Assembly (NCBI GenBank): GCA_043808785.1
Contig: JAZDEL010000006.1
Location: 30,001 to 62,000 of the forward strand
Length of the DNA: 32,000 nucleotides
Origin: Candidatus Iainarchaeum sp.
Lineage (GTDB): Archaea; Iainarchaeota; Iainarchaeia; Iainarchaeales; JAZDEL01
Direction of reading: 5' to 3'
Shown: piece after piece, positions 22,346-31,665 of the stretch
Layout of the letters: each line of letters opens with the position of its first letter
How positions within the stretch are numbered: the stretch's first letter is position 1
Position numbers and translations under genes: made by a program
The notes under the pieces: generated by a model
Seen by the model: only the letters and a program-made list of their open reading frames with translations
The model's database searches: none
What the model was told of the DNA's origin: nothing

Positions 22346-23971
22346 TTAGCGGAATTCGTTCAGGCGCTTAATTACCCTGTCTTGCCCTAACGCAAAAATA
22401 AGCGTGCCTATCCTCGGGCCGCGCTCTTTTGCGAGGAGCGCGAGGTAGAGGGATTTGAAAAGTTCGCTTTGCTGGGTGTTATTTGATTTTGCAAGGGCGA
22501 AGAGTTCCGCGAGGAGTGCGTCCGCCGATTTGCTTTTGCGCACGAGTTCCACAACCTGCGGGAACAAAGATGCTGCAGCGGGGGAAATCGCATTTTTCGC
22601 ATCTACGGGAAGTTTTTCAGCGAACGCCAGTTTCGAATCCGCGGGTGCGTATTTCTCGGACCATGCGCGCGCGTTGCGCAGGCGCCCGAGGAGCGCTGCC
22701 TTTTCCTGCGCGGGGATTTTTTTAGGGAGGCTTCCCGAATCCTGCAGTTTTGCAATGAGTTCGGCATCGGATGAGAAAAGCTGCGAGAGGGAGGTGGCGA
22801 GGGAATAATCCAAAAGCGCTTCGCCAAGTTCCCTGCCGTGAACCCTAGAATAAGTGAAAAATTTTTTTGATTCCGGATTAGCCCCAACGGACGCAATAAC
22901 CCTGTCCAGCTCGAGTTCAAGGTTGGGCACGTCCTGCCACGAGAAGCTGCGGGCTTTTGTTATGCGCTTTATGAACAAATATTTAAGGGCTTCGGGCCTC
23001 GCCACCTCAAGCCAGTCTTTGGGGTAAATTACGTTGCCGAGGGAAGCGCTCATCTTTTTTCCGTCAACCATCAAATGCTCGTAAAAAATCGGCTCCGGTG
23101 CGGGAAAATTAAGGACGCGCTCGCAGATTTCCGCGTTTATCCAGAAGGCGGAATTCCTTGATTCGTACTCCTTGCCCGCGCCCTCGGAACAAACGCCCCA
23201 GCGCTTCCACTGCGCAGCCCACTCGCTTTTCCATACCAACTTGCCGTTGGCTTTTTTTAAATCCGCGGTGCCTTCATGCCCGCAGCCCTTTGCTGTTTCG
23301 GTTTCAAACTTGTAATCGCCGCAAACGTAATTAACCTTCGAATCCTCGACCGAGGTTATTTTTGTGGTTTGTATTTTGCCGCACTTTTCGCAGACCTGCT
23401 GCCAGGGGAACCAGTTCGCGCCGAGGTGCGTGCCTTCTTCCTTGAATTTGTTTATTATTTCGCGCACTGTCGATGTGCCTTTCAGAACCTGCATTACTTC
23501 CTCATTGAAATTGCCTTTCTTGTACTCTTCCCGCATCGAGAAGCGCTTTGGTTCGGAGTCGAGGAACTGCTTCATTGTTTCAAAAAATATTTCTGCGTGG
23601 TGCTGTGCGTAGCTTTTGTGGCAGCCCTCGGGGTCGGGGATGTCCGAGACGGGCATGCCTATGCATTCGCGGAATTTTTCGGGAACGCCTGCGGGGATTT
23701 TCCTCAATGGGTCCATGTCCTCGGTTACGTAAATGAAGCCCGTTGGGAAGCCCCGCGATTTCAGGGCCTTGTAAACCGCCTCGCTGCGGATTATGTCCGA
23801 GAGGCGGCCTATATGGAGAACGCCCGAAAGGGAGGAACTTGACTTGACGTTCCATTTTTTCAGTTTCGGCGCGCTTGCATGGGAAAAACTGCCCTTTTCG
23901 CGCCGTGCAATTTTTTCCGCAATCTGCTCCGCCCAGAAAATGGCTTCCTTGCCGTCAGTTGACTGCCGCAT
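22346..23971 (-). CDS. lysK: lysyl-tRNA synthetase, class I (archaeal type)
   Basis: I trimmed the ORF to the ATG at 23971 (MRQSTDGKEAIFWAEQIAEKI). A HIGH-like motif is present (SGVLHIGRLSD). Zn-knuckle-like cysteines are present (CEKCGK ... CGDY ... GCGH). A KMSKS-like motif is present (GKKMSASLGN). The upstream 257 codons of the track ORF are antisense to the antiporter gene. Confidence 0.85.
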   Translation of the reverse strand: MRQSTDGKEAIFWAEQIAEKIARREKGSFSHASAPKLKKWNVKSSSSLSGVLHIGRLSDIIRSEAVYKALKSRGFPTGFIYVTEDMDPLRKIPAGVPEKFRECIGMPVSDIPDPEGCHKSYAQHHAEIFFETMKQFLDSEPKRFSMREEYKKGNFNEEVMQVLKGTSTVREIINKFKEEGTHLGANWFPWQQVCEKCGKIQTTKITSVEDSKVNYVCGDYKFETETAKGCGHEGTADLKKANGKLVWKSEWAAQWKRWGVCSEGAGKEYESRNSAFWINAEICERVLNFPAPEPIFYEHLMVDGKKMSASLGNVIYPKDWLEVARPEALKYLFIKRITKARSFSWQDVPNLELELDRVIASVGANPESKKFFTYSRVHGRELGEALLDYSLATSLSQLFSSDAELIAKLQDSGSLPKKIPAQEKAALLGRLRNARAWSEKYAPADSKLAFAEKLPVDAKNAISPAAASLFPQVVELVRKSKSADALLAELFALAKSNNTQQSELFKSLYLALLAKERGPRIGTLIFALGQDRVIKRLNEFR

Positions 23972-25305: not shown

Positions 25306-25447
25306 TGGGAAGAGCGGGATTTGAACCCGCGACACCACGGTTTCTGCTCCTTTCGCAAAACCTGGAATCTTCAGCTGCACATGGGCAGAGCGTGGAAAAC
25401 TCCCCTCAACGCCCATCGTGTGCTCTCCCAGGCTGAGCTACCTTCCC
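25306..25447 (-). tRNA. tRNA-Phe(GAA) with two predicted introns (41 nt at 30/31, plus coords 25376..25416; 27 nt at 37/38, plus coords 25342..25368)
   Basis: The hand fold of the minus strand is GGGAAGG-TA-GCTC-AGCCTGGGA-GAGC-A-CACG[intron1]G-CTGAAG[intron2]A-CCGTG-GTGTC-GCGGG-TTCAAAT-CCCGC-TCTTCCC-A. Removing 41+27 nt gives a perfect 74-nt cloverleaf with a 5-bp anticodon stem CACGG/CCGTG and loop CTGAAGA. No CCA is encoded. Confidence 0.7.
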
Positions 25448-26233: not shown

Positions 26234-26345
26234 CGAGCCCGAGGGGATTTGAACCCCCGACACCTTGGTTAAAAGCCAAGTGCTTTTGGCGGAAGGGGGC
26301 ATGGAAACCCGCCCGACTTCCTCTACCAGACTGAGCTACGGGCCC
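26234..26345 (-). tRNA. tRNA-Lys(UUU) with one predicted 38-nt intron in the 3' strand of the D-stem (position 22/23-24/25; plus coords about 26283..26320)
   Basis: The fold is GGGCCCG-TA-GCTC-AGTCTGGTA-GAG[GAAGTC...CCAAAAG]C-A-CTTGG-CTTTTAA-CCAAG-GTGTC-GGGGG-TTCAAAT-CCCCT-CGGGCTC-G. The anticodon arm is intact. The D-stem closes only after removing 38 nt. The junction is ambiguous by up to 2 nt. Confidence 0.75.
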
Positions 26346-26372
26346 GTCACAAAGAACGGGTTAGGAAAGGAA

Positions 26373-26378
26373 TTTAAA
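26373..26378 (-). promoter_or_regulatory. TATA box (TTTAAA) for tRNA-Lys(UUU)
   Basis: It is centred about 30 nt upstream of the tRNA 5' end on the minus strand. A C-rich tract and the T-rich/hairpin repeat lie further upstream. Confidence 0.45.
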
Positions 26379-26391
26379 TGTGTGCGGGCGG

Positions 26392-26444
26392 GAAAAACAA
26401 ACAAAAAAAACGCGTCCGTGGTTTGGCGGGTTTGGTTGGTTTTG
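26392..26444. repeat. hairpin-repeat family copy R2, upstream of tRNA-Lys(UUU)
   Basis: The sequence is GAAAAACAAACAAAAAAAACGCGTCCGTGGTTTGGCGGGTTTGGTTGGTTTTG. It has an A/C-rich arm, a CG core and a G/T-rich arm forming an imperfect inverted repeat. Confidence 0.55.
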
Positions 26445-26465
26445 CCGGGTTTGCCGGGTCGTGGC

Positions 26466-26512
26466 GGGAAACAAACCAAAAACCGCGCAGGAGCGCGGTT
26501 GGTTTTGTTGGG
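26466..26512. repeat. hairpin-repeat family copy R3
   Basis: The sequence is GGGAAACAAACCAAAAACCGCGC-AGGA-GCGCGGTTGGTTTTGTTGGG. It has an 8-bp perfect GC-core stem (AACCGCGC/GCGCGGTT) with an imperfect A/C versus G/T extension. Confidence 0.55.
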
Positions 26513-26630
26513 CTTGCGGGGTTTGCTGTGCCGGCAAACCAGCAGGCAAACCATCGGGCATGCGTGCCCGCGGGGATTTTTCGAGTTCATTTCCGCAATG
26601 CGAAAGAAACATTTATATAATGCGTTATAT

Positions 26631-26647
26631 ATCAACTATATGTTGAT
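26631..26647. promoter_or_regulatory. perfect palindrome ATCAAC-TATAT-GTTGAT between TATA (26612..26620) and the antitoxin ATG; candidate operator
   Basis: It is a 6-bp inverted repeat with a 5-nt spacer, 4 nt upstream of the ATG at 26651. This is the typical position for autoregulation of a type II TA operon. Confidence 0.4.
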
Positions 26648-26650
26648 TAT

Positions 26651-26878
26651 ATGGCTAGCGTCACAACAATCCAGATAGGAAGGAATGTGCTGGAAGAACT
26701 GAAGAAAACAAAGCAGTACCCTAGGCAGACCTATTCCGAGATAATCCTGGAGATGGCAAAGGCATACAGAAGCGGCAAATTGAAGAACCAGTACGACGAG
26801 TTCCTGCACAAGATACAGCAGGAAAAAATGAAGGAACTCTGGGGCAATAAAGAGGACGAGGCGTGGGAAAATGCCTGA
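26651..26878 (+). CDS. putative antitoxin (small DNA-binding protein, archaeal VapB/RHH-like)
   Basis: The 75-aa product starts MASVTTIQIGRNVLEELKKTKQYPRQTYSEIILEM, resembling archaeal antitoxins of the TIxIsxexxxxLkxlK...SfSdvI type. It overlaps the toxin gene by 8 nt. Confidence 0.6.
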   Translation: MASVTTIQIGRNVLEELKKTKQYPRQTYSEIILEMAKAYRSGKLKNQYDEFLHKIQQEKMKELWGNKEDEAWENA

Positions 26879-27188
26879 GCAGGGGGATGTCGTGCTTGCG
26901 GCAATCCAGTTTGCCGACACTTTCGAGATAAAAAAGAGGCCTGCTGTAGTGCTTTTTTCCGAGTTCGGGAATGTGGTTGTTGCGGGAATTACGAGCAATA
27001 CGGGGATGCAGGGCATAGCGCTTACGAAAAAGGACGGGGCGATAAAGGACAGCGTGATAAAGCCGAACTATATTTTCACTATATCGGAGAAGGCTGTGGA
27101 GAAGCGGCTTTTTTCCCTTGGCGCCGCGAAAAGGCTGGAACTATATTCCGCGCTGGAGAAAAGGCTCGGCGGGCTGAAGGGGCGCTGA
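26871..27188 (+). CDS. mazF: PemK/MazF-family toxin (endoribonuclease)
   Basis: The sequence GDVVLAAIQFADTFEIKKRPAVVLFSE...VVVAGITSN...DSVIKPNYIFTISEKAVEKRLFSL matches the MazF/PemK SH3-like fold signature (GDvv..f.....kkRPavVls....v.v..iTS). Confidence 0.8.
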   Translation: MPEQGDVVLAAIQFADTFEIKKRPAVVLFSEFGNVVVAGITSNTGMQGIALTKKDGAIKDSVIKPNYIFTISEKAVEKRLFSLGAAKRLELYSALEKRLGGLKGR

Positions 27189-27214
27189 AAATTGCTGGCG
27201 CCCGCAATTGCGGC

Positions 27215-28057
27215 TTATTTTGCGAGCGGTATTTTCACGATGAAAACCGTGCCGCTCGGCTTGTTGTCGATTATGTTATCCCTTATTTCAAGCGCGCCGT
27301 TGTGAATCTTCAGGGCGTGCATTATTGACACCTGGCCGAGGCCGTGTTGCTGCGCAGGATCAAATTCTTTCGTGGTAAAGCCCTTTGCCTCGAGGAAACT
27401 TTTTTTGCCCCTGTCGGAAAGGATTTTGCCCGTGTTGGAAACAGTTATTATGAAATTTTTCGAATCCGTACACAAATCCATATGCAGCCTCCCTTCTTCG
27501 TCAACGGCACGAAGCGCATTCTGACAAAGGTTAAAGACGACGCTCCTGAGCCAGCCAGAATTTGCATTCAAAGCGGCAGGCATTACATACATGCTGGCTG
27601 TGAATTTGGGTTTGTCCCCCGTTAAACGGCTATATTCGGCCAATATTGAGGGGTACTCGGCAAGTTCCTTCGCAAGAACCTGCGCGGATATTCTCCGTAG
27701 GGGGCCTTTGCCTCTCGAGGCAATGCCCTTTGAAAACTCAAGTTCCCGCAGTACATAATTTATGTAGCGGTCTGCTTTTTCCATATTGGGCGTGGTGCTG
27801 GCAAGTTCACACCGTGCACGCTCCACAGCCAACTCGGAAACCAACACGAAGTGGCCTAAGTCGTGGTGCAGGGTGGTTTGTTCGGCAGAACTAGCGGGTT
27901 TAATTAGGCCGCAAAGTTTCTTCAAACCCTCCATGTTTTGTTCAAGAAGAGCCAGCTTGTGTTCAACCGCCTCTTTTGTCGGCGCGGGGAATGTTGTGCG
28001 TGCAACCAGTTCCCGAACACGCAGCCTGCGCCCTTTCGGCGGATAAGGTTTCGGCAT
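27215..28057 (-). CDS. minimal soluble histidine kinase (HisKA-like H-box + HATPase_c), no sensor domain, no adjacent response regulator
   Basis: The candidate H-box is TLHHDLGHFV. The N-box is VVFNLCQNALRAV. G1 is VSNTGKI. The F-box is GFTTKEF. G2 is HGLGQVSI. Confidence 0.7.
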   Translation of the reverse strand: MPKPYPPKGRRLRVRELVARTTFPAPTKEAVEHKLALLEQNMEGLKKLCGLIKPASSAEQTTLHHDLGHFVLVSELAVERARCELASTTPNMEKADRYINYVLRELEFSKGIASRGKGPLRRISAQVLAKELAEYPSILAEYSRLTGDKPKFTASMYVMPAALNANSGWLRSVVFNLCQNALRAVDEEGRLHMDLCTDSKNFIITVSNTGKILSDRGKKSFLEAKGFTTKEFDPAQQHGLGQVSIMHALKIHNGALEIRDNIIDNKPSGTVFIVKIPLAK

Positions 28058-28116
28058 CTATAAAAACCCTAAATAAAATAGTGCAAGGTAGCATATAAGG
28101 TTATGTTGCCGTGCGC

Positions 28117-28131
28117 GAAAAATAAAAAAAA
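28117..28131 (-). terminator. oligo-T tract (TTTTTTTTATTTTTC) immediately 3' of tRNA-Lys(CUU)
   Basis: Archaeal RNA polymerase terminates at T-runs. The tract starts at the first nucleotide after the discriminator base. Confidence 0.45.
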
Positions 28132-28267
28132 CGAGCCCGAGGGGATTTGAACCCCCGACACCCTGGTTGCCCCAGAATGGAAATTAAGAGCCTCACCCAC
28201 GCACAAGGAAACCGCAAGCGGAAACTTGAAACATGACAGGTGCTCTACCAGACTGAGCTACGGGCCC
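28132..28267 (-). tRNA. tRNA-Lys(CUU) with two predicted introns (45 nt at 29/30 or 30/31, plus coords 28192..28236; 17 nt at 37/38, plus coords 28168..28184)
   Basis: The fold is GGGCCCG-TA-GCTC-AGTCTGGTA-GAGC-A-CCTG[intron1]G-CTCTTA[intron2]A-CCAGG-GTGTC-GGGGG-TTCAAAT-CCCCT-CGGGCTC-G. Removing 45+17 nt yields a perfect 74-nt cloverleaf. The body is identical to tRNA-Lys(UUU) outside the anticodon arm. Confidence 0.75.
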
Positions 28268-28301
28268 TGATTGAACCGAAATAATTGGGGGGTTGAAGGT
28301 A

Positions 28302-28307
28302 TTTAAA
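28302..28307 (-). promoter_or_regulatory. TATA box (TTTAAA) for tRNA-Lys(CUU)
   Basis: It lies 35-40 nt upstream of the tRNA 5' end. A C-rich tract and hairpin repeat R4 lie further upstream. Confidence 0.4.
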
Positions 28308-28330: not shown

Positions 28331-28386
28331 GAAAAAACACAACAAAACAAACCCCGGCGCGCCGTGGTTTTTGTTTGGTTTGTGGG
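28331..28386. repeat. hairpin-repeat family copy R4, between the serS stop and the tRNA-Lys(CUU) promoter; may double as the serS terminator
   Basis: The sequence is GAAAAAACACAACAAAACAAACC-CCGGCGCGCCG-TGGTTTTTGTTTGGTTTGTGGGG. The core is the 10-nt palindrome CGGCGCGCCG. On the minus strand the hairpin is followed by TTTTTTC. Confidence 0.6.
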
Positions 28387-28387
28387 G

Positions 28388-29674
28388 TTATTTCGCGCCC
28401 TTCCTGGGCTTAATCTCGTCAATCCCGTGCATGAAAGGGAGCAAGGCATCTGGGATTTTTACTGTGCCTTTTTCGGTCTGGAAGTTTTCTACAATCGCGC
28501 GGATTGTGCGCGAGGTTGCGAGCGCTGTGCTGTTCAAAGTGTGAACGAACTCCTTGCCCTGCGCTGTGCGGAATTTTATGTTAGAACGTACTGCCTGGTA
28601 AGAGGTGCAATTAGAGGCGGAAACAACTTCGGCATAATTCTGTTCGCGCGGGAACCATGCCTCTATGTCGTACTTGCGTGCTGCAACTGTGCCTATGTCG
28701 CCTGTGCAGACATCGACAACGCGGCAAGGTATGCGCAGACCCTGGAGGAGTTCCTCCGCGTTTTTCAGGAGTTCGTCAAGCAGTTTTGCGCTTTCTTCTG
28801 GTTTGCAAAATACGAACTGTTCTACCTTGTTGAACTGGTGCACGCGGAACAGGCCGCGAGTATCAACGCCGTGCGCGCCGATTTCGCGGCGGAAGCAGGG
28901 AGAGATGCCTGCGTATTTCAAAGGCAGGGAACGCTCCTCGAGGATTTCGCCTGCGTGCATTGCGCAGAGCGGGTGCTCGGAAGTTGCAATCAGGTAAGTG
29001 TCCACACCCTCGATTTTATACATAACTTTCTCGAAGTCTTCAAGCGCCGTGACCCCTTCATATGGCGCGCGGTTCATGAAGAAGGGCGGCTTTATCGGCG
29101 TGAAGCCTTTCTTGAGCAGGTGTGAAAGGGAGTATTGCACAAGCGCGCTGTCGAGGAGCGCGAGTTCGCCAATGAGGAAATAAAAACCCCTGCCGGAGGT
29201 TTTCGCTGCGCGCTCGAAATCAACCAATCCTGCGTTCTGCAGGAATTCGCCGTGGGGATGCATTTTGAATGAAGGAACTTCTGTTTTGCCCCAGCGGCGG
29301 ATGACCTTGTTTTCCGAGGAGTCTTTGCCCAAGGGGACGTCTTTTTCGAGGAGGTTGGGGAGGGAGAGGAGCATCGGGCGCGCCTGAAGGCGGAGTTTTT
29401 CCGCCTTTGCGTCAAGGGCCGCAATCTTTTTCGAAACCGCCTTTGCTAGCGAGATTTTTGCCTTTGCTTCTTTTTTTGAGGCGGCTTTTGAAATTGTTTC
29501 GGTTAGGGTGTTGCGCTTCTTTTTGAACTGCTCGGATTGGTAAGAGAGGCGAACGATTTTCTTGTCAAGCGCAAGAAGCCTTTCCAGCAGCGCTTCCTTC
29601 CCTCCCATGCCGCGGCGCTTGAGGTCTGCTTTTACCGCATCGGGGTTTGCGCGCACGAATTTCAGGTCGAGCAT
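28388..29674 (-). CDS. serS: seryl-tRNA synthetase
   Basis: The start is MLDLKFVRANPDAV, trimmed to the ATG at 29674. An N-terminal coiled-coil arm is present. Class II motif 2 is FRREIGAHGVDTRGLFRVHQFNKVEQF. Motif 3 is the GTVKIPDALLPFM region. Confidence 0.9.
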   Translation of the reverse strand: MLDLKFVRANPDAVKADLKRRGMGGKEALLERLLALDKKIVRLSYQSEQFKKKRNTLTETISKAASKKEAKAKISLAKAVSKKIAALDAKAEKLRLQARPMLLSLPNLLEKDVPLGKDSSENKVIRRWGKTEVPSFKMHPHGEFLQNAGLVDFERAAKTSGRGFYFLIGELALLDSALVQYSLSHLLKKGFTPIKPPFFMNRAPYEGVTALEDFEKVMYKIEGVDTYLIATSEHPLCAMHAGEILEERSLPLKYAGISPCFRREIGAHGVDTRGLFRVHQFNKVEQFVFCKPEESAKLLDELLKNAEELLQGLRIPCRVVDVCTGDIGTVAARKYDIEAWFPREQNYAEVVSASNCTSYQAVRSNIKFRTAQGKEFVHTLNSTALATSRTIRAIVENFQTEKGTVKIPDALLPFMHGIDEIKPRKGAK

Positions 29675-29731
29675 GTGAACACGAACCAATGATTAATCAT
29701 TATTAAAGGATTTACCTTGTTATTATTTTTT

Positions 29732-31578: not shown

Positions 31579-31665
31579 AGCGGGGTAGGGCAGCCTGGAG
31601 TGCCCGTCGGGCTCATATTCCATGGGGAAACCCGAAGGTCGAAGGTTCAAATCCTTCCCCCGCTA
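31579..31665 (+). tRNA. initiator tRNA-Met(CAU) with a 12-nt intron at 37/38 (31618..31629)
   Basis: The fold is AGCGGGG-TA-GGGC-AGCCTGGAGT-GCCC-G-TCGGG-CTCATA[TTCCATGGGGAA]A-CCCGA-AGGTC-GAAGG-TTCAAAT-CCTTC-CCCCGCT-A. An A1:U72 pair and three consecutive G:C pairs at 29-31/39-41 are archaeal initiator hallmarks. Confidence 0.8.

Follow-up and report, generated by a model that had tools for sequence, protein, structure and literature searches.

The 32,000-nt stretch of DNA analysed here (the window, in whose coordinates positions are given) belongs to a Candidatus Iainarchaeum genome (G000, the genome under study; 1.42 Mb, ~93% complete) and encodes the lysine tRNAs tRNA-Lys(UUU) and tRNA-Lys(CUU), the genes of which are nearly identical in their exons and interrupted by different introns. 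Very probably these are two single-copy, functional genes derived from an old cluster of the seryl-tRNA synthetase (SerRS) gene, tRNA-Lys(CUU), tRNA-Lys(UUU) and tRNA-Phe, each lineage having kept its own old, protein-spliced introns and the exons having been kept alike by concerted evolution. On this reading the Lys introns at positions 22/23 and 30/31 are long-lived, position-faithful characters that several DPANN families and even phyla have in common, rather than recent insertions.

When 38 nt are excised from the UUU gene, or 45 and 17 nt from the CUU gene, what remains in each case is a 74-nt cloverleaf in which all stems are paired. The two mature tRNAs differ at 3/74 positions (28, 34 and 42), which correspond to the wobble base and one compensatory pair of the anticodon stem, U28:A42 in the UUU and C28:G42 in the CUU tRNA. 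An earlier reading of the DNA, made from the sequence alone (the sequence-only reading), had described the genes as identical outside the anticodon arm, and this is exact, with 0 differences over the 57 positions of the tRNA body. The UUU solution was recovered by a brute-force cloverleaf solver blind to splicing motifs (score 24.5/25, anticodon UUU), and the predicted exon junctions match intronless orthologues in relatives. Regarding detection by the Rfam tRNA model, tRNA-Lys(UUU) matched the full model with 52.5 bits when the whole genome was searched and gave only a partial match of 26.7 bits in the window scan, while tRNA-Lys(CUU) scored 45.2 bits. A T-run is present 3' of both genes and CCA is not encoded in the UUU gene. 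Each Lys anticodon is single-copy in the genome, in which no other Lys genes were found, a 23-nt pattern of the Lys 5' end matching only these two genes and tRNA-Ala. Both genes are contiguous, rather than being split into halves at separate loci for trans joining.

Investigation of the splicing motifs involved scoring every junction placement that gives the same mature tRNA against the archaeal bulge-helix-bulge (BHB) geometry, in which two 3-nt bulges flank a helix of 4 bp and the cut follows the second base of the bulge, and for each of the three Lys introns one register only gave 4/4 central-helix pairs. The single 38-nt intron that had been proposed for the D-stem 3' strand of the UUU gene was borne out and its register fixed at 22/23, the alternatives 23/24 and 24/25 failing the test; its central helix pairs the D-loop bases U17a-G18-G19-U20 with intron GCCA, the bulges are AGA and AAA, and an inner helix of 5 bp is accompanied by an outer helix of just 1 bp. 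The 45-nt and 17-nt introns proposed for the CUU gene also stand, the first being placed at 30/31 (not 29/30) and the second at 37/38, and tRNA-Phe, said to be interrupted at the same two positions, does have introns of 41 nt at 30/31 and 27 nt at 37/38 in their BHB registers. In the 30/31 intron of the CUU gene the outer helix is formed by A21-G24 with C32-U35, the central helix by C25-C28 with GGUG and the inner helix by 5 bp, whereas the 37/38 intron has a central helix of C32-U35 with GGGG, no inner helix, and the anticodon stem as its outer helix. The observed motif was reached by shuffled introns in 4e-4 (22/23), 2e-4 (30/31) and 4e-3 (37/38) of 100,000 trials, and that of the 22/23 intron is present in the unconstrained minimum free energy (MFE) and centroid folds computed with ViennaRNA. 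All three introns thus have a BHB or related motif, graded as strict, HBh' and bulge-helix-loop (BHL), and, as is the case for known BHB tRNA introns, their removal restores the cloverleaf, the motif is strict or of a recognised relaxed type, and the genome encodes both the splicing endonuclease EndA and the ligase RtcB (580 bits). The features of the locus and those related to it elsewhere in the genome are given in Table 1.

Table 1. Features of the tRNA-Lys locus and associated features elsewhere in the genome (window coordinates unless a contig, C, is named).
Feature	Position	Strand	Remarks
tRNA-Lys(UUU) gene, 112 nt	26234..26345	-	exon 1 26345..26323, exon 2 26284..26234; Rfam tRNA and cloverleaf solver
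Intron of tRNA-Lys(UUU), 38 nt, 22/23, D-stem 3' strand	26285..26322	-	HBh' motif
TATA-like TTTAAA box, 28-33 nt 5' of the Lys(UUU) start	26373..26378	-	read from sequence; putative promoter
tRNA-Lys(CUU) gene, 136 nt	28132..28267	-	exon 1 28267..28237, exon 3 28167..28132; Rfam tRNA, register test
Intron 1 of tRNA-Lys(CUU), 45 nt, 30/31	28192..28236	-	strict hBHBh' motif
Anticodon-carrying micro-exon of tRNA-Lys(CUU), 7 nt	28191..28185	-	
Intron 2 of tRNA-Lys(CUU), 17 nt, 37/38 (canonical position)	28168..28184	-	relaxed bulge-helix-loop
TATA-like TTTAAATA box, 33-40 nt 5' of the Lys(CUU) start	28300..28307	-	read from sequence, repeat family D6; putative promoter
Seryl-tRNA synthetase gene	28388..29689	-	Pfam; conserved upstream neighbour, anchor for Lys positional orthology
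tRNA-Phe(GAA)	25306..25447	-	Rfam, 41.6 bits; third tRNA gene of the SerRS-Lys-Lys-Phe cluster
Inserted genes between the two Lys genes, ~1.8 kb	26651..28057	both	Pfam
VapB-like antitoxin and PemK/MazF toxin	26651-27188	+	Pfam; antitoxin match weak, below curated cut-off
GHKL-ATPase protein gene	27215-28057	-	Pfam
Class I lysyl-tRNA synthetase gene	22346-23950	-	
Intron set with UUCCA(U), window	26285-26322, 28168-28236, 25342-25416, 31579-31665		
Intron set with UUCCA(U), G000 contig C2	255388-255476, 197069-197163, 261908-261994		
EndA gene, 182 aa	G000:C7, L066:1474-2022	-	sole EndA gene in the genome
tRNA-Glu(UUC) with 34-nt D-loop intron at 20b/21	G000:C7:19386-19492	+	

The 30/31 outer helix and the 37/38 central helix of the CUU precursor draw on the same four bases, C32-U35, and therefore these two motifs cannot form together; furthermore, comparison of the full precursor with one lacking the first intron showed that the anticodon stem, the outer helix of the 37/38 motif, is complete only once the 30/31 intron has been removed. 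From the shared bases and this dependence we infer that splicing of the CUU precursor would be stepwise, with 30/31 first. In the proposed mechanism, exon bases of the folding pre-tRNA would provide one strand of each motif (D-loop UGGU for 22/23, C25-C28 for 30/31 and C32-U35 for 37/38), the single EndA of the genome would cut in both bulges and RtcB would join the exons; in the CUU precursor the 30/31 intron would most likely leave first, freeing the anticodon stem for the 37/38 cut. With three grades of motif and two mutually exclusive motifs in one precursor, the gene pair provides a biochemical test case.

Regarding the splicing enzymes, no EndA paralogue was detectable in the genome. The one EndA has one N-terminal and one catalytic domain and aligns end to end with the homotetrameric Methanocaldococcus jannaschii enzyme (PDB 1a79, E 8e-26), to which its Tyr/His/Lys triad motifs are aligned and from which it is separated by a sole gap, a 13-aa Lys-rich insert in the N-terminal domain. 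A single EndA gene is likewise present in 26/30 relatives (split across two contigs in G176), and the enzymes of 24 aligned relatives, of ~169 aa, contain no insertion relative to that of G000 outside the Lys-rich insert, which in a length of 12-13 aa was detected in G000 and the same-genus G001 only and not in the other 23 aligned relatives. By sequence alignment the insert lies downstream of the region of Lys44 of the Aeropyrum pernix Crenarchaea-specific loop (CSL) and is not C-terminal, and no insertion was found in the EndA alignments at the sites of the published broad-specificity loops (CSL/L1, ASL/L2 and L3).

Relaxed motifs are reported to be cut only by (alpha-beta)2 and epsilon2 EndA or by enzymes with L1-L3 loops, and L3-bearing alpha4 enzymes exist in DPANN (PMC5829648). 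By these published rules the present endonuclease should handle only the strict one of the three motif grades; judging from the alignments, the Iainarchaeota-type EndA appears to be without the published loops, yet its hosts carry HBh' and BHL introns. It can be suggested only tentatively, as a proposal somewhat more doubtful than probable, that throughout one DPANN order the tRNAs carrying D-arm, anticodon-stem and 42/43 introns, relaxed ones included, are matured by a loop-less, single-subunit, M. jannaschii-like (alpha4-type) EndA, and that the exons of intron-discordant paralogues are homogenised with the introns left untouched. If true, specificity loops would not be needed for a broad EndA substrate range, and very short conversion tracts or an RNA-level constraint, so far undescribed for archaeal tRNA genes, would be indicated.

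Intron distribution in relatives was assessed by pattern scans of 196 genomes of the order, and 40 genomes of the order were inspected for tandem Lys genes, many of these having intronless tandem CUU-UUU(-Phe) genes. The 22/23 Lys intron was detected in 6/196 genomes, namely G000, G022 (where both isoacceptors have it) and four members of family f20 (f-numbers denote families), and the 30/31 Lys intron in at least 14/196 genomes from eight GTDB families, nine of them found by pattern and five (G002, G023, G090, G097 and G102) lying beyond the pattern's range. The tabulated 30/31 introns (13/13) all have a strict hBHBh' motif; the exon bases that pair are the same in each, and the inner helices covary widely. 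Automated cloverleaf and alignment solutions were wrong for L032 (G036) and G111 and partly wrong, with second introns misplaced, for G097 and G118, and such rows were either ignored or used only for the mature sequence and the 30/31 intron. When all GTDB species representatives were scanned, 22/23 inserts were also revealed in Lys genes of four Woesearchaeota and three Aenigmatarchaeota. The 22/23 introns share one register, with a central helix that is complete in 10/14 genes, an outer helix of 1 bp in all, and covarying inner helices that are paired though unrelated in sequence.

Three of the f20 genomes (G090, G097 and G102) share the split seen in G000, with 22/23 in the UUU gene and 30/31 plus 37/38 in the CUU gene, and in G090 the order is SerRS, CUU, UUU, as in G000. 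Comparison of the same Lys loci thus shows that both architectures have positional orthologues in other families, and these orthologous architectures, together with the type-specific anticodon arms, mean that the introns predate this genome. Exceptions to the split are a 22/23 intron in the CUU gene of G092 and in both isoacceptors of G022, as well as G088, in which the first gene after SerRS has the 30/31 plus 37/38 architecture but a UUU anticodon; in the last case an anticodon switch (C34 to U34) probably fits better than an intron move. A single Lys gene of f20 (G090 L068, G097 L070, G102 L071) can have as many as three introns, one at either 22/23 or 30/31 and the others at 37/38 and 42/43, and the 42/43 introns of UUU and CUU are alike in length and have strict motifs. 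In a SerRS tree G000 groups with G026, G025, G018 and G023 and is placed apart from f20; the deep nodes are weakly supported, and the tree was used solely to show scatter. Two further markers were set aside, class I lysyl-tRNA synthetase (LysRS) because of bimodal identities (51-62% vs 30-36%) and elongation factor 2 (EF-2) because its match lies inside a 1316-aa open frame.

Comparison of the tRNA bodies in the 16 genomes having both Lys genes gave a mean of 3.9 differences when the UUU and CUU bodies came from one genome and 5.9 when they came from different genomes, with orthologues differing at 5.0-5.4 positions (permutation p ~5e-5, also with one genome per family); G000, with 0 body differences, is the extreme of the 16. 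These sequence comparisons indicate that the exons of the two isoacceptors are under concerted evolution while the introns stay different. Exon likeness would be kept by short gene-conversion tracts or by shared selection exerted by LysRS and modification enzymes, and the introns would be inherited with the gene and often lost, their sequence being free to change except at the pairing ends. The exons may have become identical through gene conversion confined to them; conversion and shared selection are indistinguishable here because about three substitutions separate the UUU body of G000 from a typical one and the permutation test ignores relatedness.

The sequence-only reading had seen in the pattern either gene conversion of exons only or intron gain or loss after duplication of a tRNA body. 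If one tRNA-Lys body had been duplicated recently, with each copy then gaining its introns independently and one anticodon changing, this would account for the identity of 57/57 exon positions outside the anticodon arm (the top value among the 16 genomes) and for the location of the genes 1.8 kb apart on the same strand. It is nevertheless very unlikely, since positional orthologues of both architectures exist in other families in the same gene order (the SerRS-CUU-UUU order with these architectures recurs in f20), the two genes have the respective UUU-type and CUU-type anticodon arms of the orthologues, and the 22/23 and 30/31 introns are similar at their ends to the orthologous introns. That one of the genes is a decaying pseudogene with unspliced inserts is more improbable still, to the point of being hardly credible: standard finders do fail on both genes and mobile genes have been inserted into the cluster, but all four stems are perfect after intron removal, the BHB motifs are intact, and the same architectures are conserved in other families. 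The single-copy anticodons, the promoter-like boxes and terminator T-runs, and the presence of EndA and RtcB therefore make a pseudogene an unlikely explanation.

Repeated independent, or lateral, gain of introns at predisposed sites, where exon bases already provide half a BHB motif, is an alternative that we consider improbable but of real weight. The introns have a patchy distribution, their carriers (6 and at least 14 genomes out of 196) being scattered on the SerRS tree, the intron interiors are unrelated, the conserved intron ends are largely dictated by the need to pair with exon bases, Asgard archaea are reported to have gained introns repeatedly at BHB-competent sites (bioRxiv 10.64898/2026.10.13.758758), and short modules common to different tRNAs of G000 hint at between-gene copying. 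However, the intron set is tied to gene position in both f1 and f20 (30/31 plus 37/38 in the first gene after SerRS, 22/23 in the second), the inner helices of the 30/31 introns, though free to vary, resemble one another in f4, f16 and f23, and the 22/23 inner helices begin with the same G-A-A pairs in f1, f20 and f22. For the exons alone, identity could have arisen without gene conversion by strong purifying selection on a slowly evolving tRNA body together with a few parallel substitutions, an explanation with a chance only a little below even. The bodies of G000 are only 2-4 positions from their nearest orthologues, and to change a typical UUU body into that of G000 would take about three substitutions, at position 20 and at the 49:65 pair; simple conservation does not, however, predict the excess similarity of paralogues within a genome (3.9 vs 5.0-5.9).

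Several observations weigh against the retention of old introns in an old cluster with concerted exons. The closest relative, the same-genus G001, is without assembled Lys genes because contigs end on both sides of the locus, and therefore the recent history cannot be read from it. The species tree consists of SerRS alone with weak deep nodes, and both old introns with many losses and repeated gain at predisposed sites are compatible with it. In the ViennaRNA MFE fold the 30/31 motif has its outer and inner helices but not its central one, and an alpha4-type EndA should not, by the published rules, cut the 37/38 BHL or the 22/23 HBh' motif (PMC5829648). Finally, since the permutation test ignores relatedness, the similarity of paralogues could reflect lineage-wide stem composition.

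Non-canonical and multiple tRNA introns are a kind of gene structure already known in archaea, having been described with BHB motifs in Thermoproteales, ARMAN/Micrarchaeota and Asgard archaea (PMC4033280; PMC3239211; bioRxiv 10.64898/2026.10.13.758758), including the archaeal non-canonical introns of Sugahara (2008) and Fujishima (2010) as summarised in PMC4033280. The introns of G000 and its relatives resemble these in their D-arm and anticodon-stem sites, in numbering up to three per gene in relatives, in BHB or relaxed motifs formed partly from exon bases, and in being missed by routine finders; they differ in that the lineage is Iainarchaeota (DPANN) and the sole endonuclease is single-subunit and M. 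jannaschii-like. Between-gene intron copying is described for Thermoproteales in the account given in PMC4033280; compared with the transposed families of that type as summarised there (Fujishima, 2010), no near-identical introns were found in G000 by blastn-short, and short modules are shared. No paper on tRNA introns of Iainarchaeota or Diapherotrites was found in a literature search, and the present genes extend the catalogue of heavily interrupted tRNA genes to Iainarchaeota.

Several individual systems are comparable in part. The tRNA-Thr isoacceptors of A. pernix also have introns at differing standard and non-standard positions for one amino acid and are served by one EndA (PMC3241643); there, the enzyme is (alpha-beta)2 with a CSL and splicing was shown experimentally (PMC3241643), whereas in G000 the exons are nearly identical and the system is known from sequence alone. 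Split tRNA-Lys(CUU) of Nanoarchaeum equitans and Staphylothermus concerns the same tRNA with the same break point, 30/31, but is made in two pieces that are trans-joined (PMC4090602), unlike the contiguous G000 gene with its 45-nt intron. The 20b/21 intron of Methanopyrus kandleri pre-tRNA-Glu(UUC) resembles the Lys 22/23 intron in its relaxed D-loop HBh' motif with a weak outer helix, although tRNA and numbering differ, and it was cut only inefficiently by the loop-less EndA of that organism (PMC5829648). The tRNA-Glu(UUC) of G000 has an intron at the same 20b/21 site as that of M. kandleri (PMC5829648), structurally equivalent to Lys 22/23 and with similar ends. Regarding exon similarity, concerted evolution, intergenic conversion and anticodon switching are documented for tRNA genes (PMC4090602; PMC4981973), and the within-genome paralogues being more alike than orthologues, as well as the probable C34-to-U34 switch in G088, are in line with this; in the eukaryotic cases, however, introns were equalised along with exons, while G000 has equal exons and discordant introns.

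Intron sequences had been described as unrelated to each other, and at the level of BLAST this is so: in blastn-short searches of five introns against the genome only self matches were significant, and no second full-length copy was found. Short modules are nevertheless shared. The UUU intron and the CUU 37/38 intron have the 7-nt word UUUCCAU in common, and UUCCA, a motif chosen post hoc, is present in 8/11 short tRNA introns of the genome compared with 0.28 expected, the UUCCA(U) copies lying mostly in loop regions. A UUCCAU...GGGG design is common to the CUU 37/38 intron and the introns of initiator tRNA-Met (in the same window) and tRNA-Arg(CCU), and the introns of tRNA-Ala(GGC) and tRNA-Phe contain the same hairpin loop as the UUU intron. 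In f20, the 37/38 introns of Lys(UUU) contain a 10-nt copy of the T-loop region, AUUCAAAUCC. These recurrences of UUCCA(U) and of the T-loop region may represent a module resembling the T-loop, a remnant of copying or a site for a protein, and the short modules are compatible with some copying between genes or with a shared functional or structural requirement. With recurrence limited to such modules, the gene pair makes a weak test set for intron mobility, for which it had been put forward.

On the minus strand the order of genes is SerRS, Lys(CUU), Lys(UUU) and Phe, with the class I LysRS gene nearby. SerRS is beside the Lys genes in most relatives, where the tRNA genes are 60-150 nt apart; in G000 the two Lys genes are separated by the toxin-antitoxin and GHKL-ATPase genes of Table 1, and a LAGLIDADG gene sits between Lys(UUU) and Phe. 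Some MazF toxins cut tRNA-Lys. The promoter-proximal block of Lys(CUU) is similar to the block preceding tRNA-Phe. Related palindromic A/C-rich and G/T-rich hairpin elements were detected 5' of both Lys promoters (26469-26515 and 28344-28381), and the upstream flanks, which have these palindromic hairpin repeats in common, were rejected as a duplicated block.

In default mode ARAGORN detected neither the Lys genes nor tRNA-Phe, and with the option -i it miscalled all three, the Lys genes being returned with wrong introns as Glu, Gly and Trp; the "Lys(ttt)" that it reported on contig C7 is in fact the tRNA-Glu(UUC) with the D-loop intron. Because default tRNA finders miss or miscall them, annotation pipelines would wrongly record the Lys and Phe tRNAs of this genome as absent.

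Class I LysRS is bimodal across the order, with 9 relatives having enzymes 51-62% identical to that of G000 and 13 only 30-36%, the low-identity group including the same-genus G001, in which the gene is at the syntenic site beside tRNA-Phe (L124, G001:C59:52164-53735). Sequence identities of this kind suggest xenologous replacement of the LysRS next to the tRNA-Lys cluster. The tRNA-Phe of G001 (L062:1500-1660, minus strand, G001:C59) has introns near 9/10 and at 37/38, not at 30/31 and 37/38, so that the positions of Phe introns differ within one genus; a LAGLIDADG gene is directly upstream of tRNA-Phe in G001 too. In G004 (C2, L061:1699-1915) a second copy of the last ~30 nt of an intronless tRNA-Phe, taking in the 3' part of the T-arm and the acceptor end, is located directly downstream of the gene and resembles the duplicated attachment site of an integrated element. 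In G022 (G022:C7:20513-21772, L114) an 854-aa open frame that adjoins the tRNA-Lys/Phe cluster contains a second, divergent SerRS-like match with 40% identity, the better SerRS copy being on another contig. The EF-2 domain IV match of G000 (G000:C4:195967-196287, L084) lies in an uninterrupted open frame about twice the usual EF-2 length, which could be an intein or a fusion.

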